DNA of 64,000 bases from Candidatus Nomurabacteria bacterium (lineage in GTDB: Bacteria; Patescibacteriota; Patescibacteriia; HK-STAS-PATE-3). Positions 15,377 to 62,925 of this stretch are shown here, piece after piece (within the stretch, counting starts at the first letter, position 1; each line of letters starts with the position of its first letter). The notes beneath the pieces are model-generated. The model was not told the origin of the DNA and did not search any database. It saw nothing but the letters and a program-made list of their open reading frames with translations. Where the stretch lies: NCBI GenBank assembly GCA_023898465.1, contig CP060223.1, positions 128,001-192,000 on the forward strand, in the 5' to 3' direction. A program made the translations under genes and the position numbers.

Positions 15377-15442
15377 CATCCTCGCCAAGTTAAGGTTAAT
15401 GTATAGACAGACAAGACGGTGGCGCAAAAAGGCCATCGTATT

Positions 15443-16957
15443 ATGTTTCAGAGGATTCGTAGCGCCGCGGTCTATGGTTTAGACGCAGAGTTGGTTGAGG
15501 TAGAAGCGTATATTGCGGCAGGGTTGCCGAAATTTTTAGTTGTGGGCTTGCCTGATGCCGCGGTGCAGGAAGCTCGTGAGCGAGTCCGATCAGCAATACT
15601 GAGCTCGGGTTTTGATTTTCCCAATCATCATGTGATTGTGAATTTGGCGCCGGCTGATATGCGTAAGGCAGGACCGGCCTATGATTTACCGATTGCTCTG
15701 GCTATTCTCTTAGCCTCAGGTCAGATTCCAGCACCTGAGGGTGAGTTGTGCTTTATAGGTGAGCTTGCGCTGGATGGTAGTCTCCGCTCAGTACGAGGCG
15801 CTTTACCGATTGCTGAACATATATCTCGCTCAGGTATTCGTGAATTGTTTTTACCAGCTTGTAATGCCCGAGAGGCATCAATCATCTCCGGTTTTGCTAT
15901 CCGGCCGGTTACAACACTTCAAGACATTGTCGCACATATTCGTGGACAAAAAGAGCTTCCGGTACTACGCGAGCATCTCGACTTTGCTCAGATTCGGAGT
16001 GAAGAAAGTTTCCCAGTTGACTTTAGTGAAATACGCGGTCAGCAATTTGGTAAACGAGCCCTAGAGGTCGCGGCAGCCGGCGGCCACAATGTGCTCTTCA
16101 CCGGTCCACCAGGGTCTGGAAAAACTATGTTGGCCCGCGCTTTACCGAGCATCCTCCCGCCCTTAGAATTTACCGAAGCACTGGAAGTAACCAAGCTCTA
16201 TAGCGTTGCCGGATTACTCGACGAAAAAGAGCCGCTCAAAATTACCCGGCCATTTCGCCAACCGCATCATACGGCTTCCTCAGCAGCAATTGTAGGTGGA
16301 GGGAGGATTCCTAAGCCCGGTGAGATTTCCTTAGCGCATCGGGGAGTGTTATTTCTTGACGAGTTGCCTGAATTTCCTCGACCCGTTTTAGAAACTTTGC
16401 GACAGCCCCTAGAAGAAGGTCGAGTTACTATTGCACGTGTTTCAGCGACCTTACAATATCCAGCTGCACATATCTTCTTAGCAGCTCGTAATCCTTGTCC
16501 CTGCGGTTTTGCCGGTGATCCTGAGCGTGCGTGTACTTGTCATCCTAGTGCTCGTGTACGATATGCCAAGAGAATTTCCGGCCCATTACTCGATAGGATA
16601 GATTTGCACGTGACTATTCCCCGCTTACCAGTTGAGGAGCTTCTCCACACTGAAAAAGGTGAGTCATCGTCAATTATTCGTTCGAGGGTAATAAATGCCC
16701 GGAAACGGCAGCTTCATCGGGCTGCGCGCACGCAGGTACAAACAAACAGTGAGCTTCGAAACCGACAGCTAGAAAAGCTCGTGCAGGTAGATGCAGATGC
16801 TCGCGCTTTACTTGAAACGGCGGTACAGCGTTTCCAACTATCAGCTCGGGCTTATTACCGCCTCTTAAAAGTAGCACTCACCATTGCAGATTTAGCCAGC
16901 AGTGATGAAATAAAAAGTGAACACGTAGCAGAAGCGGTGCAATATAGAGGAAATTAA
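15443..16957 (+). CDS. comM: YifB/ComM family Mg-chelatase-like AAA+ ATPase
   Basis: N-terminal Lon-protease-like ChlI domain (MFQRIRSAAVYGLDAELVEVEAYIAAGLPKFLVVGLPDAAVQEARERV). Walker A GPPGSGKTMLA. Walker B/arginine finger VLFLDELPEF. ATG at 15443 matches the family N-terminus. Confidence 0.9.
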   Translation: MFQRIRSAAVYGLDAELVEVEAYIAAGLPKFLVVGLPDAAVQEARERVRSAILSSGFDFPNHHVIVNLAPADMRKAGPAYDLPIALAILLASGQIPAPEGELCFIGELALDGSLRSVRGALPIAEHISRSGIRELFLPACNAREASIISGFAIRPVTTLQDIVAHIRGQKELPVLREHLDFAQIRSEESFPVDFSEIRGQQFGKRALEVAAAGGHNVLFTGPPGSGKTMLARALPSILPPLEFTEALEVTKLYSVAGLLDEKEPLKITRPFRQPHHTASSAAIVGGGRIPKPGEISLAHRGVLFLDELPEFPRPVLETLRQPLEEGRVTIARVSATLQYPAAHIFLAARNPCPCGFAGDPERACTCHPSARVRYAKRISGPLLDRIDLHVTIPRLPVEELLHTEKGESSSIIRSRVINARKRQLHRAARTQVQTNSELRNRQLEKLVQVDADARALLETAVQRFQLSARAYYRLLKVALTIADLASSDEIKSEHVAEAVQYRGN

Positions 16958-17058: not shown

Positions 17059-18402
17059 TTAGAAGTAGTTGAACGGATTGGTGCGTCGGCCGTTTACCCA
17101 GACTTCGAAGTGCAGGTGGTCGCCAGTACACCAGCCAGTACAACCGGAAATGCCGATAGTTTCGCCCTTGCTCACTGTTTGGCCTACGCTGACATAGGAC
17201 TTGCTTAGGTGAGCATAGAGGGTTTGCAGACCATTACCGTGGTCGATGATGATGTTATTGCCGTAGCCAGTTCCCCAGTTTGTGCGGACAACTCGTCCTC
17301 CATCTGATGCATAAATAGGTGAGGTGCGAGTATGAATATCAATACCGGTGTGACGTGCGCTATAACCCTGGTTAATTTTGTGACTGACCGTAGGCCAGAA
17401 CATTCCAGCACCAACGTTGGTGGCGGAGGCTGGTCGAGGACCACTGCTGACGCTGCTGGCAACTTGAGTGGAACTAACAGTTGTTTTAGGCGCTGGAGGA
17501 GGTTCAATTTTACCGCCCGGAATGATGAGTTGCTGCCCAACTTCAATAGCACTTGCATCAGCCAATTGGTTAAACTCTAGGATATCATCAGCGTTTGCTT
17601 CGTACTTCTTTGCGAGCGATGCAATGGTATCGCCGCTTTGTACTGAGTGGACAACACCGCTGACCGGAGGGATTTTTAATGTTTGACCAGGCTTAATGAC
17701 TGAGGAGTCGTTAAGGTTATTTGCCCAGAGGAGCGTGTTGGTGCTGACAGAAAATTGTGAGGCAATGATACTGATAGTATCGCCACCCTCAACGACATAT
17801 TCACGGACCTGGTCGCGGGGCACTCCTAATTCGCTGGTGCTTGGGATATTTGCCTTGGCTAGCGCTTCACCACTTCCTTCATTTCGGGCGATAGCTAAGA
17901 GCTGACGCTGCTGTTCAGATTCCTCGGTATTTCGATGATAGCGGTCAATTGCTCCGTCGCGGGTGATTGAGCTCAGTGCAGAATTCGGCGCCACCACCGC
18001 GTACTCGACATATTCTTCGTCAGTTTCTTGATTATGCAGAATAGTATTTACTAAAGTGCCACTGGCAAAGTCTTCAATAGCGGCTTCTCGAGCTAATACA
18101 TTATTAGTAAGTACTCCGAAGATTACGACAATAACGACCACGTGAAGCAAATAGCGCGTGGTGATTGGATACCACCATGAGGACTTACTTCCGGCAAGAG
18201 ATTTCTCAAGCCGTTGGGTTACACGTAAATATTGTCGATAGATTGGAACTGCCAATACCATAAAGGTGGCATTCCAAAACCACGCCAGAGGTTTAAAAAT
18301 TCCGTAGATAACAATAAGCACGACCAACTTCCAAAGATAGCGGACGAGATGGTAGACGCCAAAAGCTAATTTGAGTACCTGCGATTTGAGCTGTAAACTC
18401 AC
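17059..18402 (-). CDS. membrane-anchored LysM-domain M23 family metallopeptidase
   Basis: N-terminal TM segments. Two LysM repeats (YVVEGGDTISIIASQF...; HSVQSGDTIASLAKKY...). The C-terminal M23 domain has HTGIDI and the GDHLHFEV zinc-binding motifs. Confidence 0.85.
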   Translation of the reverse strand: MSLQLKSQVLKLAFGVYHLVRYLWKLVVLIVIYGIFKPLAWFWNATFMVLAVPIYRQYLRVTQRLEKSLAGSKSSWWYPITTRYLLHVVVIVVIFGVLTNNVLAREAAIEDFASGTLVNTILHNQETDEEYVEYAVVAPNSALSSITRDGAIDRYHRNTEESEQQRQLLAIARNEGSGEALAKANIPSTSELGVPRDQVREYVVEGGDTISIIASQFSVSTNTLLWANNLNDSSVIKPGQTLKIPPVSGVVHSVQSGDTIASLAKKYEANADDILEFNQLADASAIEVGQQLIIPGGKIEPPPAPKTTVSSTQVASSVSSGPRPASATNVGAGMFWPTVSHKINQGYSARHTGIDIHTRTSPIYASDGGRVVRTNWGTGYGNNIIIDHGNGLQTLYAHLSKSYVSVGQTVSKGETIGISGCTGWCTGDHLHFEVWVNGRRTNPFNYF

Positions 18403-18613: not shown

Positions 18614-21600
18614 ATGAGTATGAAAAACGTTGTACCGGAAGGGGAATACAACCCAGCAAGTATTGAAGCAAAATGGCAGGAGCACTGGAACAAAAAACCA
18701 GATCAGGCTAAGGATTTTGCGCATGATCCAAAGCGCTATCTTCTCATTGAATTTCCTTACCCCTCAGGTGATGGACTGCATGTGGGGCATGTGCGAAGCT
18801 ATGCCGCTCTCGATGTGTTGGCGCGTTATTCTCGCTTAAAGGGTTTTAATGTGCTTTACCCCATCGGCTGGGATGCTTTTGGTTTACCCACCGAGAATTA
18901 TGCGATTAAGACTGGCGTACACCCACGTGTTGCGACTGATAAGAATATTGCCACCTTTCGCCGCCAGCTTAAGGCGCTAGGCCTTTCATTTGATTGGTCT
19001 CGAGAAGTGGATACAACAGATCCAAAATACTATCGATGGACACAGTGGATTTTTTTGCAGTTCTATAAGGCAGGCTTAGCCTATCAGGCAGAGATTCCTA
19101 TTAACTGGTGTCCAAAAGATAAAATCGGTTTGGCCAATGAAGAAGTGGTTGATGGCAAATGCGAACGCTGCGGCACTGAAGTAACGCGTAAAATGCAAAA
19201 GCAGTGGATGTTAAAAATCACCGCCTATGCAGATCGCTTACTACGTGATCTCGATACAGTTGAGTACGTTGAAAAAATTAAAACACAGCAGAAAAACTGG
19301 ATAGGTAAGAGCGAGGGTGCTGAAATATCTTTTCAAATAGCTAGTAAGGAGTCGCAAAAACCTCGCTTCGTACTTCTCCATGGTTTTCAGGGCTCAGCTA
19401 AAGGTAACTTTTTCCCATGGCTAAAAGATGAGTTGGTCGCAAAGGGCTATGAGGTGGAAGTACCTGAATTACCAAACAGCGCTCATCCGACTGAAGAGGA
19501 ACAGGTAAGTTATGTACTTGAACATTGTCGCTTTGATGAAAACACCATCGTGTTTGGTCATTCGCTTGGTACAGTCGTGGCCATGAAGGTTATAGAAAAG
19601 CTTCCCACAAAAGTAGCTGGCTTGGTTATGGCCGGTGGATTTACCCAGGCTGATTTTTCTGATCACGATCGACCATTCCGCGATACCTTTACATGGAATT
19701 TTGATTTCCAGGCGATTCGAGATAAAGCAGGTTTTATAAAAGTGCTACATGACGTGCATGATGATGCCGTGCCCGAGGGAGCTGGAGAGGCTTTAGCAAA
19801 AGCGCTCGAAGTGCCGTGCTACAAGGTGACCGCAAATGAAGAGCATTTCTGCGCAAAGCAAGAGCCTTATCTATTAGCGCATCTCATGCCAAACACACTT
19901 TTGGTTGGTACGCAAAATCAGGCAAAGGTGGAAATGCTTCGACGAGCATTGGCCCCTTACCCAAATATTCACCTCATCAGTTTAAGTGATATTGGTAAGG
20001 TCGATGATCAGGCTTTAGTAGAGGGCGATGACTTTCGTGCTAATGCAAAAATGAAAGCAGATTTTTATCACCGAGCCACAGGTTTACCAACCATATCGAC
20101 GGATCATATTCTTTGGATAGAGAAATGGCCTGAGGATAATGGCTTCATTACGCATATTCGCAAATTAGCAAATCCGAAATCTGGACGAGCAACAGATGAA
20201 GAACTAGCAGAATGGATAAAAAAATTTATCGATAAAAATGGTGAGTCGCGTACAGCCTTTCATTATGCTATTGGTTATGCCGATGAGAAGGGAGTGCAGG
20301 GCTTTGTGAGTATTCAGCGCGAATACATGTTGAAGGCTAATCCGGCTAAAGCACGATGGGAAGGCTATGCGGTCGGTGCATTTTTGCGTGACCCCGTGAC
20401 TGATGCGTATCGAGAAGAGATGCCCGCAGAGATCGCTTTTGATCGCTTCTTCGCCACAGTGCGCAATGAAATTGTGCCGCAGGTTTTCGATATGAGCACC
20501 TTGACGGTCTTTACCACACGACCCGATACCATCTTCGGTGTCACGTATATGGTTGTAGCCCCTGAACATGAACTCCTTGCCAAGTATCAATCACACATTA
20601 CAAATTGGGATGAAGTTCAAAAGTATGTGCGAGAGGCCGCCAAGAAATCCGATATGGAGCGGACCGAGTTGGCCAAAGAAAAAAGTGGCGTTGAGCTCAA
20701 AGGTATTCAGGCAGTAAATCCGGCAAATGGTGAAGTAATCCCGATTTGGGTAGCTGACTATGTGCTGAGTTCTTATGGCACCGGAGCGATAATGGCTGTG
20801 CCGGCGCATGATCAGCGAGACAATGAGTTTGCAAAAAAGTACTCCCTGCAAATAAGAGAAGTAGTAAGAGGTTTTAATCGTGTAGGAGAGAAAAAAGATA
20901 TTGTATATTCTGGCGAGGGGGTCCTAGTAAATTCTCAGGACTTTGATGGAGAAAAAAGCGAAGACGCAAAAAAGAACATTGTAAGGTGGTTAGAAGAAAA
21001 AGGACTCGGTCATTCAGCAGTCAATTTTAAACTTCGCGACTGGGTATTTTCACGTCAGCACTACTGGGGCGAGCCGATTCCGATTATTCATTGTCCTAAG
21101 TGCGGAGCTGTTCCAGTGCCGGAGAAAGACCTACCAGTGGAATTGCCTCATGTAGAAAAATACCAACCCACTAATACTGGGGCTTCACCATTAGCTGCGA
21201 TCGAGGATTGGGTGCAGGTGAAATGTCCGAAGTGTAAGGGCGAAGCGAGTCGAGAAACCGACACCATGCCGAATTGGGCCGGGAGCTCGTGGTATTTCCT
21301 GCGCTATTCGGATCCGCACAATAGTAAAGCCTTTGCTGATAAGAAAAAGCTAGAGTATTGGCTGCCGGTGGATATTTACAATGGTGGCAATGAGCACACC
21401 ACCCTCCATTTACTCTACTCGCGTTTCTGGCATAAGTTTTTATTTGATCAGGGCTTGGTACCAACTCCAGAACCATACCAGCATCGTCATTCGCATGGGA
21501 TTGTGTTAGCTGAGGATAATCGCAAGATGTCAAAGAGTTGGGGGAACGTGGTCAATCCGGATGATTATGTGCAGGAGTACGGTGCAGATAGCGTGCGCAT

Positions 21601-22198
21601 GTACGAGTTATTTATGGGACCATTTGAGGATATGATTCCGTGGTCAACCAAGGGTATCGTGGGTGTGCATCGCTTCTTAAATCGTGTGTGGGAACTTTAT
21701 CGTAAAGTTACAGAAGAGACGGCCCAAGTAACAGAAGAGAGGGACATTCACAAAGCTGTGAAAAAGGTTGGGGAAGACCTCGAGGCTTTTCGTTTCAACA
21801 CCGCGGTGAGCACTTTGATGGAATATTTTAATCACTTCCGTGATGAAGTGCAGCAGGGTAGGCTCGATAAAGAAGCAGCAGAAAAGTTTCTCGTGATCCT
21901 TTTCCCATTTGCGCCGCACCTTGCCTCAGAGCTCTGGGAGCAGTTAGGAAAGAAGAGCGATATTCGCGAACAATCATGGCCAAACTTTGATCCAAACGCT
22001 TTACAAGCGGAGACCGTCACGATCGGTGTGCAGATTAATGGCAAAGTGCGCGCCTCCATAAGCCTTTCACCAGAAGCAAGCGAAGCAGAAGCGCTGGAGC
22101 TAGCCTTAGCCGAAGAAAATATTCAACGCTATCTTCAAAAGGGACAGCCCAAGAAGGTTATTTATCGTGCAGGAAAAATTCTCAATCTGATCGCCTGA
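18614..22198 (+). CDS. leuS: leucine--tRNA ligase with large inserted hydrolase/Ham1-like module
   Basis: HIGH motif (HVGHVRSY) and KMSKS motif present. The Zn-binding CxxC..CxxC insertion, the CP1 editing-domain core (FTTRPDT...AVPAHDQRD) and an anticodon-binding C-terminus are all recognisable. At 1194 aa it is about 330 aa longer than typical bacterial LeuRS because of an insertion between EISFQ and TVFTTRPDT. Confidence 0.9.
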   Translation: MSMKNVVPEGEYNPASIEAKWQEHWNKKPDQAKDFAHDPKRYLLIEFPYPSGDGLHVGHVRSYAALDVLARYSRLKGFNVLYPIGWDAFGLPTENYAIKTGVHPRVATDKNIATFRRQLKALGLSFDWSREVDTTDPKYYRWTQWIFLQFYKAGLAYQAEIPINWCPKDKIGLANEEVVDGKCERCGTEVTRKMQKQWMLKITAYADRLLRDLDTVEYVEKIKTQQKNWIGKSEGAEISFQIASKESQKPRFVLLHGFQGSAKGNFFPWLKDELVAKGYEVEVPELPNSAHPTEEEQVSYVLEHCRFDENTIVFGHSLGTVVAMKVIEKLPTKVAGLVMAGGFTQADFSDHDRPFRDTFTWNFDFQAIRDKAGFIKVLHDVHDDAVPEGAGEALAKALEVPCYKVTANEEHFCAKQEPYLLAHLMPNTLLVGTQNQAKVEMLRRALAPYPNIHLISLSDIGKVDDQALVEGDDFRANAKMKADFYHRATGLPTISTDHILWIEKWPEDNGFITHIRKLANPKSGRATDEELAEWIKKFIDKNGESRTAFHYAIGYADEKGVQGFVSIQREYMLKANPAKARWEGYAVGAFLRDPVTDAYREEMPAEIAFDRFFATVRNEIVPQVFDMSTLTVFTTRPDTIFGVTYMVVAPEHELLAKYQSHITNWDEVQKYVREAAKKSDMERTELAKEKSGVELKGIQAVNPANGEVIPIWVADYVLSSYGTGAIMAVPAHDQRDNEFAKKYSLQIREVVRGFNRVGEKKDIVYSGEGVLVNSQDFDGEKSEDAKKNIVRWLEEKGLGHSAVNFKLRDWVFSRQHYWGEPIPIIHCPKCGAVPVPEKDLPVELPHVEKYQPTNTGASPLAAIEDWVQVKCPKCKGEASRETDTMPNWAGSSWYFLRYSDPHNSKAFADKKKLEYWLPVDIYNGGNEHTTLHLLYSRFWHKFLFDQGLVPTPEPYQHRHSHGIVLAEDNRKMSKSWGNVVNPDDYVQEYGADSVRMYELFMGPFEDMIPWSTKGIVGVHRFLNRVWELYRKVTEETAQVTEERDIHKAVKKVGEDLEAFRFNTAVSTLMEYFNHFRDEVQQGRLDKEAAEKFLVILFPFAPHLASELWEQLGKKSDIREQSWPNFDPNALQAETVTIGVQINGKVRASISLSPEASEAEALELALAEENIQRYLQKGQPKKVIYRAGKILNLIA

Positions 22199-23385
22199 TG
22201 TCACATCATTTTCCACATACGCAAAGTTTAGAGTATTCGCTTCGACGAGAAGTGACCGAAATTTATCTCAGCGTGACAATCAAGCACTTTGGCTTGGCGC
22301 TTTTGTCAGTCTTCGAGGTCATTTATCTTTTCGAGTGGTTTGGATCTTCTCTAGCTTTATTGCTCTTATTCTACGGCATGAATTATGTGCTGCACGCGCT
22401 TTTTACTCCTTTTGCTGCCATGCTCGTAAATCGGATTGGCGTGAAAAAGAGTATCCTCCTGGCCAATCCATTTATTATACTGTTTTTCGTTTCATTACTT
22501 TTTCTACCTAGCTGGCCCTGGTTAATTATTCCTGCATTACTCAGTATCGCGATTTATCACGCGATTTTTTGGTTGGCCTTTCACATTGATTTTTCGCGAT
22601 TTGCCAATCCAGAGCACCGAGGTCGGCAGACGAGCATGCTCCTTGCTATACCAATGATTGCGCACGCCATTGGGCCTTTGCTCGGGGGCTTTCTTATTAC
22701 AGAGTTCGGCTTCTCAGTGCTTTTTCTCGTTGTCATTATTTGTTTAGGAGTTTCCGTTCTTCCGCTTTTCTTTTCTCGAGAGGTACATGAGCCATTTCAC
22801 TTACACTGGCGACAGACTTTTCACTACGCTTTTTCTTTTCGTCATTGGCGCCGGAATCTTGTTTTTATAGGCGATGGCATTAGCGGAAAGATTAGCGTTG
22901 TTGTGTGGCCGGTTTTTCTTTTTCTCGCCATTACAAATTTTGTTGACTTAGGTGTTATTAATTCCGTAGCCTTTTTACTCACGCTATTGATGGGTTTATA
23001 TATTGGACATTTGACTGATTCGCCACGTCGCCGAGTGGTTTTGACTCTTGGGGCAATTTTTACTTCCTTTGGCTGGCTTGCCCGAATTTTACTCAAAACA
23101 CCTTGGCAACTTTTTGCCTTTGACGCATATGGTCGGGTTTCTCGCCGGATCATTGATGTACCCTATAATGCACTTTTTTATAAAAGCGCCTATGAACATG
23201 GCGAAAATAAAGCAGCTTTTATTGCTTCCTACGAAATAGTAACAAATCTTTTCGGTGGATTTTTCCTTATTCTCCTCGCGGCATTAGCAAATATGGTGGA
23301 TCCCTTTATTGCCGCTTTTGTTACCGCTGGTATTTTTACGGCCTTTTTCCCAATTATGCCTGACAGTAATAAGAAGGAAAAATAA
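22198..23385 (+). CDS. MFS-like multi-pass membrane transporter
   Basis: 395 aa with about 12 TM helices. The ATG overlaps the leuS stop (ATGA). Confidence 0.6.
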   Translation: MSHHFPHTQSLEYSLRREVTEIYLSVTIKHFGLALLSVFEVIYLFEWFGSSLALLLLFYGMNYVLHALFTPFAAMLVNRIGVKKSILLANPFIILFFVSLLFLPSWPWLIIPALLSIAIYHAIFWLAFHIDFSRFANPEHRGRQTSMLLAIPMIAHAIGPLLGGFLITEFGFSVLFLVVIICLGVSVLPLFFSREVHEPFHLHWRQTFHYAFSFRHWRRNLVFIGDGISGKISVVVWPVFLFLAITNFVDLGVINSVAFLLTLLMGLYIGHLTDSPRRRVVLTLGAIFTSFGWLARILLKTPWQLFAFDAYGRVSRRIIDVPYNALFYKSAYEHGENKAAFIASYEIVTNLFGGFFLILLAALANMVDPFIAAFVTAGIFTAFFPIMPDSNKKEK

Positions 23386-23999
23386 TGCGACGCTTGCTAA
23401 TCCATGACCCAGAAGCATTATCTACTGCTGTTCGTGCGCTCAAAAACGGACAACTTATTATCTATCCTACTGACACTGCCTATGCTATTGGCGCAGATGC
23501 GACAAATGCGGCGGCTGTCCGGGCAGTCCAACAAGTGAAACAGCGTAGCGAGGCAAAACCACTTCCATTAATTGCTGCTGATAGTGCCCAAGTTGCTCAG
23601 GTGGCTATTTTACACCCTGATGAAGAGCTGCTGGCGAAGAAACATTGGCCCGGTCCGCTCAGCCTCTTACTTGACCGGAAAGGTGGATTACCAGAAGAAG
23701 TCACGTTAGGCCTGCCAAAAGTAGCCATTCGAGTACCACATATGCCGTTTGCTCGTGAGTTAGCCTTGCGACTCGGTCATCCAGTTGTGGCAACTTCAGC
23801 AAATATGGCTGGCATGGGCCCAAAGTATGATCCTGATGAGGTGCTGCATGAGCTAGTAAATAATAACCACAGCCCGGTCGTACTGATAGACGGAGGAGTA
23901 TTAGCAGAAGTACCGCCCTCAACCATTGCGGAGTGCCATAACGGAGAAGTGAAGATACATCGTCAGGGGCCAATTGTGATCCCGGGCGCCACAATATGA
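23385..23999 (+). CDS. tsaC: L-threonylcarbamoyladenylate synthase (YrdC/Sua5 family)
   Basis: YrdC-domain motifs IYPTDTAYAIGADATNAAAV ... KPLPLIAA ... VATSANMAG. Length 204 aa. Confidence 0.85.
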   Translation: MRRLLIHDPEALSTAVRALKNGQLIIYPTDTAYAIGADATNAAAVRAVQQVKQRSEAKPLPLIAADSAQVAQVAILHPDEELLAKKHWPGPLSLLLDRKGGLPEEVTLGLPKVAIRVPHMPFARELALRLGHPVVATSANMAGMGPKYDPDEVLHELVNNNHSPVVLIDGGVLAEVPPSTIAECHNGEVKIHRQGPIVIPGATI

Positions 24000-24823
24000 G
24001 CGTGTATTCGCCAACTCAGTTGCAAGCCCTTTGCCGTCAATTTGGCATACGGCCTCAGCGACGTCGCGGGCAAAACTTTGTTATTGATCAACATTTGATT
24101 GATCGTATGCTGCAAGCGGCTGAAATAGACTCCGAGCATCCGATATTAGAAATTGGGCCGGGTTTTGGCGTTTTAACAGAAGCATTAGTGCAAAAAGCGT
24201 CTCAGGTAATAGCAATTGAACTAGAAAAAAAGCTAGCTGAACATTTGCAAAAGCGTTTTTCTTCCCAAAAAAATTTGACCATAGTGCAGAATGATTTTCG
24301 TTTTACTGATCTTGCTGCGCTGGGTCTCCAAGAGGCGGCATATGATGTAGTGGCTAATTTGCCGTATCAAATAACCTCCTTAGTTATTCGGCGTTTATGT
24401 AGCACGCATCCTCGTCCACGTCGTATCACCCTGCTCGTGCAAAAAGAAGTAGCTGAAAGGATTATTGCGCCATCAGGAGAGGCAAGCACGTTAAGTATTG
24501 CGGTGGCTTTTTATGCTCAGGCAAAGCTGGTCAGAACCGTTTCTCCGGCAGCTTTTTGGCCGCGGCCTCAGGTGAAATCAGCTATTCTGCGTCTTGATTT
24601 GCATAGTACCATTCCAAATGTTGACGAAAAACGCTTTTTCTCCATTGTGCGTTCGGCCTTTCAAGGTAAGCGCAAAAAATTGCGCAATTCACTTGCTTCA
24701 GTACTCGGAGTTGAACCAATAAAAGTCGAGGAAATATTGAGAAAACAGGGTATAAATCCAGAAGTACGAGCTCAAGATCTCTCACTTGAGAACTGGTTGA
24801 CAATCGCACAAGAAAAGCTTTGA
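23996..24823 (+). CDS. rsmA: 16S rRNA (adenine1518/1519-N6)-dimethyltransferase
   Basis: KsgA N-terminus RRRGQNFVID...ILEIGPGFGVLTEAL (SAM-binding motif) and NLPYQITS motif. Overlaps tsaC by 4 nt. Confidence 0.9.
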   Translation: MSVYSPTQLQALCRQFGIRPQRRRGQNFVIDQHLIDRMLQAAEIDSEHPILEIGPGFGVLTEALVQKASQVIAIELEKKLAEHLQKRFSSQKNLTIVQNDFRFTDLAALGLQEAAYDVVANLPYQITSLVIRRLCSTHPRPRRITLLVQKEVAERIIAPSGEASTLSIAVAFYAQAKLVRTVSPAAFWPRPQVKSAILRLDLHSTIPNVDEKRFFSIVRSAFQGKRKKLRNSLASVLGVEPIKVEEILRKQGINPEVRAQDLSLENWLTIAQEKL

Positions 24824-24886: not shown

Positions 24887-25759
24887 TTGGCTTTTCAGGG
24901 GGAACAACCAGGGGAGAATGACAATACAAAGCTTTTCAATAATGCCCCAGAGCAAGGTAATCAGGTTCCGCCTGAGCAAAGTGGCTCGCGGGGCTTTTTT
25001 ATTGCGTTAATTTCCTTTGGCGCAGTTGGGCTTTTGCTCGGAATTGTGAGCTTGGCAAAGAATATTCAGTCACCTTTTGTACCAAATGCCAACCTCATTG
25101 CGGTGCAGCAGGACACCAATCAAGAAAACATCTCTGATTTGCAGCAAAGAGACACGGATGGAGATGGGTTAAGTGATTACGAAGAACTTTATCAATACAA
25201 CACTAGCCCGTATTTAGCTGATTCTGACTCGGATACCATTGATGATAAGAAAGAAATCGAGAGTGGAAACGATCCGAATTGTCCAAGTGGCCAGGATTGT
25301 ACCGGATTAGGCGTAAATACAAACACGAGTACAGTTGACGATGCATTGGGGCTTACTAATAGCTCCACCAATACATCCGCGACAAATACCAGTACGAGCA
25401 CGAGTGCGGTTGATATGGCACAGTTGCGTGAAGTGTTAAAGGCCTCGGGTGCTCCTGCCTACGTCGTGGATTCAACCGATGATGCTACTTTGCTTGAGCT
25501 TTACAACGAATTAGTAGCTGAGCAGGGTGGTGACTCGCTTGATACCAACTCGACAGATACAAATGCGAGTAACACGTCGACTGTTGATGACGCTACCACC
25601 TTACAACTTCTGCAAAGCTTATCAGCCAGCGAGATACGCGCACTTCTCATTCAAAGTGGCGTTGATCAATCATTAATCGATCAAGTAGACGATTCTGAGC
25701 TGCAGCAAATATTCCTTGATGCAGTGCAATCCGAGTTTTCCTCTGACTCCTCATCATGA
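24887..25759 (+). CDS. secreted acidic low-complexity protein with thrombospondin-type-3-like Ca-binding motifs
   Basis: 290 aa. The ORF begins at a TTG, with no in-frame ATG before the TM segment FFIALISFGAVGLLLGIV. Asp-rich DTDGDGLSDYEE / DSDSDTIDDKKE motifs. Thr/Ser/Asn-rich linker. Confidence 0.55.
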   Translation: MAFQGEQPGENDNTKLFNNAPEQGNQVPPEQSGSRGFFIALISFGAVGLLLGIVSLAKNIQSPFVPNANLIAVQQDTNQENISDLQQRDTDGDGLSDYEELYQYNTSPYLADSDSDTIDDKKEIESGNDPNCPSGQDCTGLGVNTNTSTVDDALGLTNSSTNTSATNTSTSTSAVDMAQLREVLKASGAPAYVVDSTDDATLLELYNELVAEQGGDSLDTNSTDTNASNTSTVDDATTLQLLQSLSASEIRALLIQSGVDQSLIDQVDDSELQQIFLDAVQSEFSSDSSS

Positions 25760-28700
25760 TTCTGCCTTCTGAGCAATCAAAGAAGAAAAAGAGCGTGCGA
25801 GCAATCGCTAGTTTTCTGTTGCCAATGGTTTTACTGGTGACAGTGTTGGGAGTTGCCTTACCACGAGAAAGCAAAGCTCAAATTGGCGCAGTTGGCAGTT
25901 TGGCGGGATTTATTTGGAAGGAAGTAAAAGATTCAGCCCGTTATATTGCCACGCAGGCAAAAGCTGCTTTTGAAAAAGCTCAGGATACCAGTTACGCCAT
26001 TGCGTTTAAGAATAGCTTACGAGTTTTCTTAGGTAAGGTGGCAGAAGATACCGCCGTGTGGGTTTCCAGTGCCGGGACGGGCCAAAAGCCGCTCTTCATC
26101 ACTGATCCGCATTATTGGCGAAATTTGACCGATGCGGCTGGCGGCGACTTTTTGGATTCTATTTCCAAAGATGTTTTTGGAGTAAGTCTGTGTGAGCCGC
26201 TCGATGTGCAAAAGAAGGTTCAACTAGAAATTGCCACCCGCAATCTTATCAATCCTTTAAACGTGTGTGAGAACAGTTGTAACACGACATACAACAATAC
26301 AGCCGAGCAGCTAGGGAACATGAAATCGTATCTTGATCTTCAAGAACGTAAATCACAAGCAAGTCCGAATGCGCTTACCTATTGTCCTGATGAAGAGTTT
26401 CTGCTTGGCATTAGCACTCCAGACAATCCGAATGATCCCTCAACCTATGGCACACAGATGTCAGAGCTTGAGTGTTTTCAACTCATCTCAAACAACTACA
26501 ATCGTCGAAGGCAGCAGGCGACTTCAGAATTGACCTCATGTTTGCAAGATTGTAATCGCGGATCTCGTAAGTCATCCTGTACCGCAACCGCAGTATGGGG
26601 AAACATTCGAGACATTCAGGATTTCTCAGTAGAATTTCAAACTTACTTTAAGCCTGAGCAAAATGATATTGGTCAGATTCTTACCCTTTTCGGCTTGACT
26701 CAGCAAGCAGAAGAAGAGGCGAAGATTGCCGAAGAGACAATTCAGAATAGTAAGTTAGGCGCGGTAACTTCAACGCTTCGTACAGACATCCTTACCCCGG
26801 CCAGCTTGGTAGAAGAAAAAGCAGCCCAGCCTATTCGAGAGTCTTCAACAATTGATACTACGCAAACCGGATCCTTACTCGCTGATGTGGGTAATATTTT
26901 TGCGAACACCTTAACGCAGCGTTTAATGGAGAGATTCTTCCGCAGTAAGTGTGGATTAAATCCAAGCGCATGCGAGGGCCCAGGCCAAACAGACTCCAAA
27001 CTCGGCTCCTTACTCTTTAGCACACGGACTCCAAGCGGTCTGGCAGCTGCGCGACTCCAGTTCGCCAGCTTAGCTCGAATCGATTACACAACAGGAGATC
27101 CAGGTCGTTCACAAATAGCAGTATCAAATCAATTAGAAGCGCAAGGTATAATTAATTCCGGTTTCCGACAGGCTATTGATGAGCACATGACAGTGCGAGA
27201 AGCGTTGAACGCCGGCTTGCTAAATGCCAGCGCAACCTTTGGCTACGACGAAACAGACAATGAAGCGGAAAATGGAATTCCATACCGCTCCATCCTTTAT
27301 CTGCGTAAATATCGAGTCGTCCCTGTTGGCTGGGAGTTGGCCGCTGTGTATATCGGTTCAGATGCAGATAGACAGTCACATGGCTTAGGCGAACTCGTCG
27401 ACCTCTATGATTGGTGTGGACAGGACGCTGCACATGGTTTACCAAATCCAGATGATCCAGAGACACCATTGCCTTCACCATTCTGCGGATTGGTTGACCC
27501 GAGTTGGGTATTAAAAGCTCCTGACACGTACTGTCGACGTCAGGGCGCTGGTGATGAAATTATCCAACGTCGCTATGTGTGTGACACTGATACCAATGGC
27601 GATGGTCGAATTAATTGTAGCCTGAGCGATTTGGGTGGAGGGGATATTGGCTCCTGGATTATTTCACGAAATCAAGATACCTGCGTTGATGAGCCTAGCT
27701 GTGTGGCCGAAGATAGTGATGGGAATTGTCTCGCCTATGGATATTGCTATGAAGAAAAGCCGATTTGGCGTTTCGGCGGTGAAACCTGTAACGGGTACTA
27801 TGCTTCTTGTCGATCTTATACAAATTCAAGTGGCATTCAACTCGCTTACTTAAAAGATACCCTTGATGAGGGCGATTGTAATCCAGAGAATGCCGGTTGT
27901 CGCGCGTACTGCAGCGATGGCGAATACAATGCCGTAAATCAGACCTGGAGTTGTCGCTCTGATTCAGGTGATACTATATACTTTGATCGGGACGCGAGCT
28001 CATGTCCAGATGGTGCGGTTGGATGTACTGAATTAATTCGCACCGAAGCTGGATCAAACGTTTTAGCAAACGCTGGATTTGAATACTATACAGGTACCAG
28101 CGATGACGGCACTCGAGATACTTTTGGCTTCTGCAGTAATAATGGCGCTGCCTGTCAAACCAATGGAGACTGTGGACTCGGGGCAAGTTGTGAAGGTTGG
28201 AAAACTGATAACGGTGCCGTCCAACTACAAGCAGTCAGCGATGATGTGAGTGGCGTTGGTTCACCAGACACCATTGCAGTGCAAATGAGCGCCGGGGTTG
28301 GCAAGCTCATTCACGAAGCTGATGCCTATCAAGATTTGAGCGGCATGCAGATGACTTTCTCATACTACGCAAAAGCGCTTGGAGCAAGTTGTAGCGGCAC
28401 CTTTGGCGTACAAAGCGCTGATGCAATTTATGTGCCAGCCGCTGATGAAGAGGGTAGCGCTGAGTACACCGATCTCTGGCAGCAATATGCTGGAGTCTTC
28501 ACCTTCCCAGAATCAGCTTATACTAAGAGTAAGGTGCAGGCGTACATAAATAATCCGGGCTGCGGTATTTTGGTTGACTCAGCTAAATTAGAATTTAGTG
28601 CTGCGCAAACAGTGTACTCGGATTATCAGACGGTGAATGAAATTTCCATGCAAGTTCCACAGACCACTCTGCTGTCCAACGGAGACTTCAGCTTAGATGA

Positions 28701-31700
28701 TGGAACTGACTTCTTTAGCTACCCAGCCCCAGTTGATGGAGATAACTCTACCGCAGATGACAATATTCCAGACGGCTGGACACCACGAGCAGTAGGAAGT
28801 ATCGCAATTGATCGCACGCAAGGCCACTTTGATGATGAATCACTTCGGATTGACGCTAGTGGAGTGCGTAGCTATGCGGGCCAGCTTGTTCCAGTTGAAC
28901 AAGGTAAAACCTATGAAGTGAGCGGTTGGGTAAAGAGTCAATTGACTCCAAGTGGTGGTGATACTCCATTTGGCGCACTCATGACCGAATGTGTGTACAG
29001 TGCCAGCCATCCAAATGCTTACGAAACATTTAATCCTTCGGCTGATGAGCCAAGCGAGTGTCTCTTGTCTAACTTCGAAACCTACATTCGTCCTTCAGTT
29101 GAAGACGGTAACAATTATTATGTAACAACTGGGACGAGCGACTGGACTTATCTCCGCTATACCGTGACCGCAAATAATCCTGATATCGGCTTTATGCGAG
29201 TTGCTTGTACAAATGTGTCTCAGGATACAGGAGGCATTCAAGCTGATGGTTCTGGTACGGTTTGGTGTGATGATGTGAAGGTGGTGGAAACTCCACTAAG
29301 TTGTGACCGCGAAGAAGTTGGTTGTCAAAAATATCGACCAGTTGGGGCTGGTGATGCCGTAAATGGCGTAGTGCGTTCCAGCGACATTTGTCCGCTTGAT
29401 CAGGTTGGTTGCCGCCAATTCCGTGAAATGCCGATTGAACATGTGCCTCAGCGTGATGGCATTGATCCAGTCTACATTATTGAAAGTTCGGGAAACCAAT
29501 GTACAGCTGCCAGTGTGGGTTGTGAGGAATACACTAACCTTGACCTGGGTGAGTCAGGCGGAGAAGCCTTAGCGTACTTCTCACAAATTAAACAGTGTGT
29601 GAAGCCGACAGATCCAAACGCAGGTAACTTCTATACTTGGGAAGGTAGCGAACAAGCTGGTTATAACCTTCGTGCATACAAACTTCTCACGAGTAATGTT
29701 GATCAAGGTCCATGTACAAATCTTTCGGTCGGTACAACTACCAGCGATCCAATCTGTGAAGACGATAGCAATCCAATCGCTGAGTGTAGTGTGGATGACC
29801 TAGGCGTGAACCCTGATTGTACTGAATACTTTAACGATTCCGGCGAAGTCTTTTATCGCTTGAAGAGTCGAACAGTCACCGTCTCCAATGATTGTCACCC
29901 ATTCCGTAATTCAATTGACGCAGCTGCAGGTGAGGATAGTGTGTATCACGTGATTCCGAGCGAAGCAGTCACTTGTTCCGCCGCTGCAGCTGGTTGTCGT
30001 CAGTACAAGGGAACAACTGCAGATAGTAGCCGTACCGTCTACAATGAGAATTTTGAAAACGGCTCGGTGAACGGTTGGAGTGGGGGCGTGACCTATTCAA
30101 ATGAGTCAGTTAACTTAGGCGGTCACTCCATGCGCACGAGCGACGACACTCTTTTCTCAATCGATCTCTCAAACACCATTACTAACGGCCGAACCTACAG
30201 TATTCAGTTCTCCTATAAGGCTCGGCAGACCGGTGACCTAGCCTTTCAAATTCGCGATGAGCTAGGCGAGAGCTTTGGCAGCACGGTAGCTATTCGGCCG
30301 GGTGAAGAATGGGCGCAGTATGAGCTCGGACCAGTCTTTGTGAATTCAACCGGCGACCCGACCGAGTTTATCTTAGAATTTACCACTCCTTCAAGCCTAC
30401 CAGGCGGGTGGATCGATAATATTAAATTACGCGAATCAGTTGACAGTATTTATCGTATCAAGGGTACGACCTCGTCCTGTGATCCAGCAAATGCCGGATG
30501 TCGCCTCTATGTTGATAGCGCAAATAGCCCGGTGGCAGTTACCTCATTTAGTCATCTCTGCTCTGATCGGGCAGTCGGCTGTGAGGCAATGACAGTGACG
30601 CAAAATTCAGATTATCCTTTTGTGCAGGATGTACAAGATAATCCTGATAAGTTTATTCAAGGTGATCTGACTCTCGCGTATGTAAACTCCTCAAGCGCTT
30701 ATTGTCGGGCAGAGTACCAGGGCTGTACTGAGTATGGCGTTGCTTCCTATGATCAAAATAATGAAGTACTTGCATGGTCAAGCACGAATTTGATTAATGA
30801 TCCAGACACTTATCCGGTAGCACTTTGTCATCCGAGTCAGAATCGCTGTGAAGAGTACACCGAGAGTATTAGTGGCAGTAAGGCCTATTTCCGCGATCCA
30901 GGCAATCAAACCTGTGAATATCGTGAATCAGCTGCCTATGCTGGATTATTAGTAGACGGTTGGTTTATCACGGGCACAAATGAGCCATGTCCATCACAGT
31001 CGTTGACTTGCTTCGGCGGCACTCTGGCTGGTGAACCGTGTATGACGTCGGATCAGCAGCAAGCTTGTCTAAACAATAATGGCTACTGTATCGCCTATCC
31101 ATTAGACGGAGAAGTGAAAGAGGTAAATCTTATCTGTGGTTCAACCTGTTCAACTGGTGGATCAGTTGGTCAGGCTTGTGTGAATAATGGTCAATGCTCG
31201 AATGTGTGTGTAGGCGGCACGAATGCTGGTGCATCTTGTCTACGCAATGATGATTGTGGTGGAGGTGGTACCTGTGAGATAGGGCAGTGCGGTGATGGTG
31301 GTGTGCGGCCTTTCTGTGATGGTCGTCAAACCGGATCAACTCGACAAGATCAGGAAAATTGTTTGGCTGATGATGGGCTCTGTACGGCCATTCCTCAGGT
31401 AGGTCAGCCAGGGCGAACCTGTCAGGGTGGTCCAAACGACGGCCTGTCTTGTGCCAATGATGCATACTGTTCCAGTGTTTGTGCTGGTGGTACAAATGCT
31501 GATAACGCTTGCTTTAACGATAGCGATTGTCCAGGGAGTACCTGTGGCGTGGAAGCGAGTTGTGCAAATTACTGGGTTGGCACCTGCGAGCCGGCCGCTG
31601 CGGGATGTACGGAATTCCGTGACCCTCTTGATCCGCCGCAACAAGGAGCCTATCCAAATGGTTGTCAGGTGAATTGTACGCTGGCCACTGACCGTAATGA

Positions 31701-31896
31701 TAATCTCATTGAGGTAGATGCTGAGTGTCGACCTGGCTCAACAGCAGCGTCACAACCTGGCTGTCAGCCTTACTACATCTTGCGGCAAAGTATTACTTCG
31801 CAAGTTTCCGAATGTAATTCAACTATTGATTTCACTACCGGGTGTCAGCCATTCTATGACACCGCTAATCCAAATGCTAATTTTATAGGGGGTTAA
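25756..31896 (+). CDS. giant secreted Cys-rich surface protein (2046 aa)
   Basis: N-terminal signal/TM segment (IASFLLPMVLLVTVLGVAL). Long uninterrupted ORF with a 4 nt overlap with the upstream gene. Many Cys-containing modules. The C-terminus has tandem CxxxxC/GG-rich modules. Confidence 0.8.
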   Translation: MILPSEQSKKKKSVRAIASFLLPMVLLVTVLGVALPRESKAQIGAVGSLAGFIWKEVKDSARYIATQAKAAFEKAQDTSYAIAFKNSLRVFLGKVAEDTAVWVSSAGTGQKPLFITDPHYWRNLTDAAGGDFLDSISKDVFGVSLCEPLDVQKKVQLEIATRNLINPLNVCENSCNTTYNNTAEQLGNMKSYLDLQERKSQASPNALTYCPDEEFLLGISTPDNPNDPSTYGTQMSELECFQLISNNYNRRRQQATSELTSCLQDCNRGSRKSSCTATAVWGNIRDIQDFSVEFQTYFKPEQNDIGQILTLFGLTQQAEEEAKIAEETIQNSKLGAVTSTLRTDILTPASLVEEKAAQPIRESSTIDTTQTGSLLADVGNIFANTLTQRLMERFFRSKCGLNPSACEGPGQTDSKLGSLLFSTRTPSGLAAARLQFASLARIDYTTGDPGRSQIAVSNQLEAQGIINSGFRQAIDEHMTVREALNAGLLNASATFGYDETDNEAENGIPYRSILYLRKYRVVPVGWELAAVYIGSDADRQSHGLGELVDLYDWCGQDAAHGLPNPDDPETPLPSPFCGLVDPSWVLKAPDTYCRRQGAGDEIIQRRYVCDTDTNGDGRINCSLSDLGGGDIGSWIISRNQDTCVDEPSCVAEDSDGNCLAYGYCYEEKPIWRFGGETCNGYYASCRSYTNSSGIQLAYLKDTLDEGDCNPENAGCRAYCSDGEYNAVNQTWSCRSDSGDTIYFDRDASSCPDGAVGCTELIRTEAGSNVLANAGFEYYTGTSDDGTRDTFGFCSNNGAACQTNGDCGLGASCEGWKTDNGAVQLQAVSDDVSGVGSPDTIAVQMSAGVGKLIHEADAYQDLSGMQMTFSYYAKALGASCSGTFGVQSADAIYVPAADEEGSAEYTDLWQQYAGVFTFPESAYTKSKVQAYINNPGCGILVDSAKLEFSAAQTVYSDYQTVNEISMQVPQTTLLSNGDFSLDDGTDFFSYPAPVDGDNSTADDNIPDGWTPRAVGSIAIDRTQGHFDDESLRIDASGVRSYAGQLVPVEQGKTYEVSGWVKSQLTPSGGDTPFGALMTECVYSASHPNAYETFNPSADEPSECLLSNFETYIRPSVEDGNNYYVTTGTSDWTYLRYTVTANNPDIGFMRVACTNVSQDTGGIQADGSGTVWCDDVKVVETPLSCDREEVGCQKYRPVGAGDAVNGVVRSSDICPLDQVGCRQFREMPIEHVPQRDGIDPVYIIESSGNQCTAASVGCEEYTNLDLGESGGEALAYFSQIKQCVKPTDPNAGNFYTWEGSEQAGYNLRAYKLLTSNVDQGPCTNLSVGTTTSDPICEDDSNPIAECSVDDLGVNPDCTEYFNDSGEVFYRLKSRTVTVSNDCHPFRNSIDAAAGEDSVYHVIPSEAVTCSAAAAGCRQYKGTTADSSRTVYNENFENGSVNGWSGGVTYSNESVNLGGHSMRTSDDTLFSIDLSNTITNGRTYSIQFSYKARQTGDLAFQIRDELGESFGSTVAIRPGEEWAQYELGPVFVNSTGDPTEFILEFTTPSSLPGGWIDNIKLRESVDSIYRIKGTTSSCDPANAGCRLYVDSANSPVAVTSFSHLCSDRAVGCEAMTVTQNSDYPFVQDVQDNPDKFIQGDLTLAYVNSSSAYCRAEYQGCTEYGVASYDQNNEVLAWSSTNLINDPDTYPVALCHPSQNRCEEYTESISGSKAYFRDPGNQTCEYRESAAYAGLLVDGWFITGTNEPCPSQSLTCFGGTLAGEPCMTSDQQQACLNNNGYCIAYPLDGEVKEVNLICGSTCSTGGSVGQACVNNGQCSNVCVGGTNAGASCLRNDDCGGGGTCEIGQCGDGGVRPFCDGRQTGSTRQDQENCLADDGLCTAIPQVGQPGRTCQGGPNDGLSCANDAYCSSVCAGGTNADNACFNDSDCPGSTCGVEASCANYWVGTCEPAAAGCTEFRDPLDPPQQGAYPNGCQVNCTLATDRNDNLIEVDAECRPGSTAASQPGCQPYYILRQSITSQVSECNSTIDFTTGCQPFYDTANPNANFIGG
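31130..31550 (+). repeat. tandem Cys/Gly-rich modules within the C-terminus of the 2046 aa protein
   Basis: Two similar modules: CGSTCSTGGSVGQACVNNGQCSNVCVGGTNAGASCLRNDDCGGGGTC and CQGGPNDGLSCANDAYCSSVCAGGTNADNACFNDSDCPGSTCG. Confidence 0.5.
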
Positions 31897-31897
31897 T

Positions 31898-36469: not shown

Positions 36470-36476
36470 ATATATC

Positions 36477-41123: not shown

Positions 41124-41126
41124 CAC

Positions 41127-62043: not shown

Positions 62044-62120
62044 TGGTGCGCCCGGCAGGGATCGAACCTACGACCTCAGGCTCCGCAAGCCTGCGCTCTA
62101 TCCAACTGAGCTACGGGCGC
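62044..62120 (-). tRNA. tRNA-Arg (anticodon reads GCG)
   Basis: Reverse complement: GCGCCCGTAGCTCAGTTGGATAGAGCGCAGGCTTGCGGAGCCTGAGGTCGTAGGTTCGATCCCTGCCGGGCGCACCA. It folds as a cloverleaf: 7 bp acceptor stem, D-loop with A20, anticodon stem CAGGC/GCCTG with loop TTGCGGA, T-arm GTAGG-TTCGATC-CCTGC, and an encoded CCA. It is close to E. coli tRNA-Arg(ACG) apart from G34. Confidence 0.85.
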
Positions 62121-62838: not shown

Positions 62839-62925
62839 CGGAAGGGGTGGGATTCGAACCCACGGAACCCTTTCAGGCCCAACGGTTTTCAAGACCGTCC
62901 CTTTCGACCACTCAGGCACCCTTCC
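62839..62925 (-). tRNA. tRNA-Ser (anticodon TGA)
   Basis: Reverse complement: GGAAGGGTGCCTGAGTGGTCGAAAGGGACGGTCTTGAAAACCGTTGGGCCTGAAAGGGTTCCGTGGGTTCGAATCCCACCCCTTCCG. Anticodon stem ACGGT/ACCGT with loop CTTGAAA. Long type-II variable arm. T-arm GTGGG-TTCGAAT-CCCAC. CCA is not encoded (CCC follows). Confidence 0.85.

Follow-up and report, generated by a model that had tools for sequence, protein, structure and literature searches.

The window analysed here, a 64,000-nucleotide stretch of the Candidatus Nomurabacteria bacterium contig CP060223.1 (positions 128,001 to 192,000), carries a leuS gene encoding a leucyl-tRNA synthetase (LeuRS) with a large in-frame insertion. The gene occupies 18614..22198 on the + strand, the strand of all leuS features described below, and forms a single uninterrupted open reading frame (ORF) of 1194 aa, insertion included. 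The product matches the NCBIfam model for bacterial LeuRS (TIGR00396, leuS_bact) with 1014.3 bits against an equivalog cut-off of 548.4, and its closest solved structure is the LeuRS of Thermus thermophilus (1h3n, 776 bits). By sequence it is a true representative of the bacterial LeuRS family. The HIGH signature is present as HVGH (aa 56-59, 18779..18790), and the KMSKS signature (aa 971-975, 21524..21538) and zinc cysteines are in place. The CP1 editing domain (PF13603, 205 bits, 20489..20995) contains the T-rich editing motif TVFTTRPDT (aa 631-639, 20504-20530) and the conserved Asp733 (codon 20810-20812). All of these features are invariant in 106 relatives with or without an insert, and the alignment of those sequences shows no variation at H56, G58, H59, T634, T635, R636, T639 or D733. 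The gene is thus predicted, from the intact motifs, to encode a working bacterial-type LeuRS capable of leucylation and editing, and the initial annotation of the insertion as in-frame in an otherwise canonical enzyme proved correct.

The insertion lies at the junction of the catalytic body and CP1, as first described, between the motif WIGKSEGAEISFQ (aa 229-241, 19298..19336), which forms the first beta-strand linker toward CP1, and TVFTTRPDT. Because the flanking motifs end at aa 241 and start at aa 631, it comprises 389 aa (aa 242-630, 19337..20503), longer than the original estimate of about 330, and it has no counterpart in insert-free LeuRS. The window enzyme shares the full domain set of bacterial LeuRS (T. 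thermophilus, 1H3N/2V0C; E. coli, 4AQ7/3ZGZ), namely a Rossmann core with HIGH and KMSKS, zinc modules, CP1 in the bacterial position, and anticodon-binding and C-terminal domains. Unlike these it has a two-enzyme insert where insert-free enzymes, including those from other members of the candidate phyla radiation (CPR; P0122, 800 aa; P0113; P0105; others), have only 10-16 residues between the equivalents of the two motifs. Solved LeuRS structures align to it in two stretches, the second restarting at query residue 628-630. In the full-length AlphaFold2 (AF2) model, strands at aa 232-244 and 629-634 flank the insertion, placing its two tandem hydrolase modules on the N-terminal hinge, or beta-linker, of CP1.

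An identical leuS, flanked by the same genes, was recovered in separate assemblies of two sequencing runs, so the merging of neighbouring genes raised as a concern at the outset is not supported. GC content is continuous through the insertion and no flanking repeats beyond chance level were found around it. Given the single ORF, the two-run assembly, the steady GC content and the chance-level repeats, an assembly artefact is excluded for practical purposes. An intein was considered and rejected, as neither junction has the expected residues (the N-junction residue is Ile242, and the C-junction, DMSTL followed by TVF, lacks His-Asn) and no Hint domain was matched in a Pfam scan of the protein and the insert. 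This agrees with the absence of an intein signature reported initially. A mobile element was likewise rejected on the unbroken GC content and the chance-level repeats.

The first module, here called SerH, spans aa ~245-428 (19346..19897) and is a member of the YdeN/RBBP9 family of alpha/beta serine hydrolases (Ser_hydrolase, PF06821). It scored 32.6 bits when the insert was scanned (cut-off 22, E = 9.5e-8) and 31.5 bits in the full protein, and it matched YdeN (1uxo) with E = 8e-16 and RBBP9 with E = 4e-7; the family originally proposed for this module is therefore the right one. The catalytic triad is in register, with the nucleophile Ser317 of the GHSLG motif (codon 19562..19564) aligned to Ser75 of RBBP9, the acid Asp383 (19760..19762) aligned to Asp138 of RBBP9, and His411 in EEHF (19844..19846) aligned to the GGHF motif of YdeN. 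The predicted local distance difference test score (pLDDT) exceeds 90 over aa 250-425 of the full-length model. Among 101 SerH modules embedded in aminoacyl-tRNA synthetases (aaRS), the nucleophile Ser was kept in every one and the triad acid was Asp or Glu in 97, while the His was found in all 79 whose aligned segment (the envelope of the hidden Markov model, HMM) extends that far. The module is accordingly predicted to be catalytically competent. SerH has in common with YdeN of Bacillus subtilis (1UXO) and human RBBP9 (2QS9, 7OEX) a small, ~180-aa alpha/beta hydrolase fold, a GxSxG nucleophile, and Asp and His in register. Unlike them, it is embedded in an aaRS and belongs to a distinct clade with motifs of its own (FFPWLK, LPN, TFDWxFDF and HF..EP). 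A free-standing SerH (P0199) has GFDLG for GHSLG, with the Ser changed to Asp, and is possibly a paralogue that has lost its activity or changed its mechanism. RBBP9 is the only PF06821 enzyme to have been characterised. It acts as an aminopeptidase, forming acyl-enzymes with one Leu/Ile, Met, Phe, Tyr or Trp residue, and depends on a free alpha-amine; the authors of that work allow an amide, ester or thioester scissile bond (PMC8866121). The residues aligned to its aminoacyl pocket are F343, F348, R353, A385 and V386, in loops for which the alignment is uncertain.

The second module (aa 429-630, 19898..20503), called Ham1-like, belongs to a CPR-specific clade with the Ham1/ITPase fold. Ham1p_like (PF01725) was matched with 27.4 bits (cut-off 22.5, E = 3.6e-6) when the insert was scanned alone and was not listed when the whole 1194-aa protein was scanned; in the insert, both Pfam families anticipated initially are thus above their thresholds. 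A profile of 15 Ham1-like modules matched RdgB/Ham1 structures with E = 1e-8. Module 2 has a pLDDT of only 40-70 in the full-length AF2 model because the alignment is shallow there, and reached 92.5 when it was folded separately with 43 free-standing homologues, so both modules are predicted to fold independently, as the initial annotation had suggested checking. A Foldseek search with the separate model retrieved Ham1, RdgB and ITPA structures (4bnq, 2q16, 1vp2, 2j4e) with probability 1.0 and TM-scores of 0.65-0.73. As the superposition covers the whole length, the module is a complete Ham1 fold of ~200 aa; the family and fold named at first stand, and the size of ~140 aa does not. The fold also matches KomBC of the Kongming anti-phage defence system, which is linked to dITP (9v0g, 9xvc, 8zsg; TM about 0.61-0.65).

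The Ham1 motif T433-x-N435-x-x-K438 (19910..19927) and the core residues E470, N477-A478-x-x-K481 and D497 (20021..20104) were found in module 2. T433, N435 and K438 are invariant in the 15 embedded modules, the Asn and Lys also show no variation across a set of 44 sequences, canonical Ham1 proteins among them, and E470, N477, K481 and D497 are likewise invariant or nearly so. Ham1-like therefore shares with RdgB, Ham1 and ITPA (PF01725; 1K7K, 2Q16, 4BNQ, 2J4E) the whole-domain fold and the TxNxxK, E, NAxxK and second DDSGL Asp residues, the last being D497. Unlike them, it forms a Patescibacteria-specific clade in which the segment 'EKWPxDNG...ANPKS' is altered, the first Asp of DDSGL is Thr (Thr496), and the base-recognition motifs SHR (C-terminal) and GYDPIF are replaced. 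The RdgB/ITPA equivalog models were missed (TIGR00042, 20.7 bits against 145.35; NF011397, 31.2 bits against 234), and since the scores fall so far under these cut-offs the module is a member of the fold and superfamily and not an orthodox ITPase or ITPase orthologue.

The 120 best relatives of the full protein are almost all LeuRS of Patescibacteria, 950-1700 aa long, with Pfam annotations for Ser_hydrolase, NUDIX and Ham1, and sometimes HAD or methyltransferase. Insertions were mapped onto an insert-free reference LeuRS and modules were labelled using local HMMs with strict seeds and thresholds. Most of the closest LeuRS relatives bear SerH, NUDIX and/or Ham1-like modules, and across the set these fall at no fewer than five different sites, among them reference positions ~238 (site A, that of the window protein), ~365 (B, inside CP1), ~437 (C, after CP1), ~210 (D) and ~272 (E). 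SerH was found 89 times at A, 4 at B, 7 at C and once at E, Ham1-like 20 times at A and 3 at D, and NUDIX boxes 39 times at B and 6 at D. The most frequent architectures were SerH alone at A (48) and SerH at A combined with NUDIX at B (21). The SerH modules outside site A are separate sequence lineages, which indicates several independent insertions. The tandem of SerH and Ham1-like at site A was restricted to the window protein, which is identical to P0011, and to P0019 and P0177, and is a rare combination within a widespread CPR theme. The architecture called unusual at the start is so with respect to the literature and not rare in nature; the suggested comparison with LeuRS from related CPR lineages showed that the insertions are widespread and that their catalytic Ser and Ham1 core residues are kept. 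No subfamily could be assigned to the NUDIX modules of sister proteins, for which the best matches (Ap4A hydrolase, DIPP, RppH) were weak and driven by the NUDIX box. Possible split LeuRS broken at or just before site A were also seen, in two overlapping ORFs at L025:9015-12715 and in P0177, P0195 and P0285, which begin with 'MQKNWIGRSEG...' or at SerH. These forms could equally be frameshifts or gene-calling artefacts.

Ham1-like was inside LeuRS ORFs in 20 of 26 loci from GTDB species representatives, and 80 SerH loci from a scan of metagenomes comprised 77 in LeuRS-like ORFs, 2 directly upstream of LeuRS and 1 in GlyRS, these locus scans having been seeded with LeuRS-embedded modules, which biases the LeuRS proportions upward. 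An exhaustive HMMER search of 1.84 billion representatives returned 422 SerH relatives at E <= 1e-10. The long matches that were sampled were LeuRS, together with one ValRS (P0204, SerH at aa 653-829), one LeuRS containing GNAT and SerH (P0235) and one LeuRS with a HAD insert (P0186). Public annotations name these proteins 'leucine--tRNA ligase', 'class I tRNA ligase family protein' or 'alpha/beta fold hydrolase'. A class II GlyRS (L085:5794-8670; NF003211, 521 bits) has an N-terminal SerH (aa 73-225) and a histidine-phosphatase domain (aa 272-409), and the association of SerH is therefore not limited to class Ia enzymes. Other carriers or partners were a TsaD with an internal SerH (P0236), an adenylate kinase-SerH fusion (P0288), a fusion of SerH with a Peptidase_S51 domain (P0277) and an ACT-SerH protein (P0272).

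Free-standing homologues about 50% identical to the modules were also found (SerH P0178, P0187, P0189, P0200 and P0205; Ham1-like P0131), several of them next to leuS. SerH P0178 lies 6 nt upstream of an insert-free LeuRS of 809 aa (L036/37), P0187 lies 36 nt upstream of a LeuRS of 801 aa (L040), and P0200 is separated by 24 nt from a downstream LeuRS of 957 aa (L041/42), which contains a NUDIX insert and no SerH. In all of these loci the LeuRS downstream of the free SerH is without an embedded one, a pattern that equivalence of the fused and operonic forms would predict. A tightly packed cluster (L043:8001-12882, GCA_020049755.1) contains two successive SerH genes, the first of them P0205, then a tRNA_edit gene encoding a YbaK-like deacylase, Ham1-like and an archaeal-type LeuRS (TIGR00395, 784 bits), with AlaRS at the end of the locus on the opposite strand. 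The closest free Ham1-like gene, P0131, overlaps an upstream PF06821 gene by 4 nt, in the same order as in the window insert, and the N-terminus of a LeuRS is found one gene downstream (L003). In L004 and L005, an S66 peptidase gene precedes Ham1-like and leuS follows within two genes; the S66 peptidase of this context scored 104 bits with the MccF-like model and 61 bits with LdcA. The genes between Ham1-like and leuS in L003-L005 had no Pfam matches. The context of the free-standing gene in L038/39 was uninformative or negative. The links to S66, S51, GNAT and YbaK-like proteins are each represented by one or two loci. Overall, the association of SerH and Ham1-like with LeuRS recurs, physically or operonically, in both bacterial-type and archaeal-type contexts, and does not require the modules to be fused to the synthetase.

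Within the 64-kb window, no free-standing copy of SerH, Ham1 or NUDIX was found, nor do the genes flanking leuS (MFS, Sua5, KsgA, M23 peptidase) hint at a function. At 22198 the end of leuS overlaps with the beginning of an MFS transporter gene; Sua5/YrdC (t6A synthesis) and KsgA/RsmA then continue the series with no intergenic space (22198-24823), in what appears to be a translation-related operon. Upstream are genes for a LysM and M23 peptidase protein, a cell-wall hydrolase (17059-18402, - strand), and a ComM/Mg-chelatase-like ATPase (15419-16957, + strand), both of which are also present in the independent assemblies L001 and L002. Further downstream, four successive giant ORFs (2046, 1523, 1563 and 1072 aa; 25756-44345) contain CBM, Big_7, FN3 and glucodextranase-B domains, the last also having a TrbL/VirB6-like domain, and the group probably encodes a surface or secretion apparatus of the sort typical for episymbiotic CPR bacteria. 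The tRNA model of Rfam (RF00005) identified two genes, at 62047-62120 and 62839-62925 on the - strand (68.9 and 60.4 bits).

We are highly confident of the anatomy and of the presence of activity-competent domains taken together, and consider it likely that the modules are functionally linked to the aaRS. One form that the link may take is that both modules are accessory hydrolases coupled to leucylation, which would clear aminoacyl-adenosine species made by, or aimed at, LeuRS. Chemically, the aminoacyl group is joined to adenosine through a carboxylic ester in aminoacyl-tRNA and to AMP through a mixed anhydride in aminoacyl-adenylate. SerH would attack the aminoacyl carbonyl, either of the ester at the 3'-end of a mischarged tRNA-Leu or of the aminoacyl group of an aminoacyl-adenylate or analogue, using acyl-enzyme chemistry as in RBBP9. 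Ham1 enzymes act on nucleotide anhydrides at the alpha-phosphate, and Ham1-like, or NUDIX in the sister proteins, would hydrolyse such an anhydride in a non-canonical nucleoside triphosphate, an aminoacyl-AMP or by-products of the ApnA type. The CP1 editing site, itself intact, would in this way be complemented by a further layer of hydrolytic quality control. This role is favoured because of the aminoacyl chemistry of RBBP9 and because the Ham1 clade has lost the motifs for recognition of hypoxanthine and xanthine and kept the phosphate and metal residues. Product clearance or proofreading had been suggested initially and gains support from the gene neighbourhoods, the substrate being one that we infer. 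As a mechanism, clearance of aminoacyl-adenosine species is a serious possibility that we put forward tentatively.

Several observations weigh against it, in addition to the seeding of the locus scans. The substrates of the modules are purely what we infer from their relatives, and Glu108, Tyr99, Leu103, Phe140 and Leu141 of RBBP9 are not recognisably conserved in SerH, subject to the same uncertainty in the loop alignment. The editing residues of CP1 are fully intact, leaving no obvious unmet need for editing. Several free Ham1-like genes have no aaRS neighbour (L007-L009, L031, L033). The inserted families are diverse (SerH, NUDIX, Ham1-like, HAD, His-phosphatase, GNAT) and the carriers extend to GlyRS, ValRS, TsaD and adenylate kinase, a range that fits generic house-cleaning fusions as well as it fits leucine-specific editing. 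An esterase or aminopeptidase and a sanitiser of the nucleotide pool might simply have been captured in permissive loops on the surface of an essential protein whose expression is constitutive, where they would gain assured co-expression and copy number in ultra-small, genome-reduced cells and play no part in leucylation or fidelity. Besides the intact CP1 and the diversity of families and carriers, this agrees with the existence of free-standing homologues that have the same conserved residues, with some free Ham1-like genes lying in generic housekeeping clusters, and with insertion sites that are hinges and loops and not motifs. It does not readily account for the translational coupling to leuS that the closest free SerH genes show in at least four lineages, among them one whose LeuRS is archaeal-type with a different CP1 topology, nor for the YbaK-like deacylase that shares an operon with SerH, Ham1-like and leuS in L043. 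Nearly all of the fused carriers found are aaRS, and the insertions into one protein, LeuRS, are repeated and independent. We consider passive capture of this kind unlikely, though still credible.

Both hydrolases could instead confer built-in immunity, at the target enzyme, to 'Trojan-horse' aminoacyl-nucleotide inhibitors of LeuRS. SerH would cut the aminoacyl-N bond of Leu-AMP mimics (agrocin-84/TM84-like, microcin C-like or aminoacyl-sulfamoyl nucleosides), as MccF and MccG do, and the nucleotide warhead would be destroyed by Ham1-like, NUDIX or HAD. CPR bacteria take up peptides and nucleotides in bulk, and exposure to aminoacyl-nucleotide compounds is therefore to be expected; TM84 is a Leu-AMP mimic that targets LeuRS. 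Each known class of microcin C immunity enzyme (S66, S51 and GNAT) was found as a partner of the modules, through the MccF-leaning S66 gene that immediately precedes Ham1-like in the vicinity of leuS, the S51 peptidase-SerH fusion P0277, and the GNAT and SerH modules of LeuRS P0235. MccG is the S51-family immunity enzyme (PMC9239234), and MccE2, a GNAT, acetylates aminoacyl-nucleosides (PMC8323819). Each association is seen in one or two loci, however, the S66 protein could be a plain murein LD-carboxypeptidase, TM84 has no free alpha-amine, and the SerH fusions to GlyRS or TsaD would be left unexplained. We also know of no Leu-targeting peptide-nucleotide outside agrobacteria, and immunity as the function of the modules appears distinctly unlikely. 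The aminopeptidase activity of RBBP9, with its Leu/Ile/Met/aromatic acyl-enzymes, raises the further prospect that SerH is a leucine or hydrophobic aminopeptidase that frees N-terminal Leu from imported peptides beside the synthetase, the amino acid being channelled into charging in organisms unable to make leucine. Fusions of SerH to S51 dipeptidase and ACT amino-acid-binding domains, and its fusion to or operonic placement with LeuRS and ValRS, would suit such a role, whereas the pairing with Ham1-like, NUDIX and a YbaK-like deacylase and the GlyRS, TsaD and adenylate kinase fusions would not, and the RBBP9 pocket residues are not conserved in SerH as far as the uncertain loop alignment allows comparison. 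We judge supply of substrate to be improbable. Finally, the modules could be dead structural or regulatory inserts, the former having been offered as an option in the initial annotation, or an artefact of assembly or annotation that merged neighbouring genes. Ham1-like has lost SHR and the first DDSGL Asp and falls far below the RdgB equivalog cut-offs, and free SerH P0199 has Asp for the nucleophile Ser. Family-wide conservation of the triad (about 100 sequences) and of the Ham1 phosphate and metal residues (44 sequences) points the other way, as do the uninterrupted ORF, the identical gene from two runs, the lack of a GC break and the more than 100 homologous architectures from independent sources. 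This last alternative is already largely refuted and retains very little probability.

The LeuRS with its inserted modules can be compared with other known systems. The editing and trans-editing hydrolases of aaRS (CP1 of LeuRS, IleRS and ValRS; YbaK/ProXp/INS; AlaX; DTD) share the concept of a hydrolase attached physically or operonically to a synthetase. Unlike them, SerH is a Ser-His-Asp enzyme of the alpha/beta-hydrolase type, non-homologous to those families, and CP1 persists next to it. When the insert was scanned with Pfam and NCBIfam, the only matches were to alpha/beta-hydrolase and Ham1, with no homology to CP1, YbaK/INS (PF04073), AlaX or DTD. To our knowledge, the alpha/beta-hydrolase fold has not been described as an editing domain for aminoacyl-tRNA. 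The microcin C immunity proteins MccF (S66), MccG (S51) and MccE2 (GNAT) inactivate aminoacyl-nucleotide inhibitors of aaRS, and their families recur as partners of SerH and Ham1-like; unlike MccF and MccG, SerH belongs to neither S66 nor S51, and the link is one of guilt by association. Precedents for synthetases that gain domains include IleRS with a GNAT domain (NF040702) and the GST, WHEP and EMAPII domains of eukaryotic aaRS. Unlike these, the additions to LeuRS are internal small-molecule hydrolases, present at several sites in CPR and possibly DPANN. Full-text searches, with most subscription journals outside their coverage, turned up no account of LeuRS with inserted hydrolase, NUDIX or Ham1 domains.

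The fidelity mechanisms of aaRS are thought to be well catalogued (CP1, INS/YbaK, AlaX, the ThrRS N2 domain and DTD). The recurrence of hydrolases in or beside LeuRS over a large part of the CPR would have one of three meanings: a new class of editing or clearance domain, an antibiotic-immunity device tethered to its target, or enzyme capture under extreme reduction of cell and genome. A broader proposal, which we regard as speculative and rather doubtful, is that a hydrolytic layer of aaRS quality control or self-protection, unrecognised until now, evolved in ultra-small symbiotic prokaryotes (CPR and one organism with an archaeal-type LeuRS). It is no more certain that such a layer would be modular, with SerH and Ham1-like or NUDIX placed inside LeuRS, and sometimes ValRS or GlyRS, or encoded directly upstream. 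Equally speculative is that its targets would be mischarged tRNA ends, mis-activated adenylates or antibiotics that mimic adenylates. If true, SerH would be the first editing or immunity domain of the alpha/beta-hydrolase type in an aaRS. From the genomic context, substrates open to testing can be proposed both for the YdeN/RBBP9 family, which is poorly understood, and for the Ham1 clade without ITP-recognition motifs, and the pattern in CPR LeuRS points to an undescribed accessory function of this synthetase.

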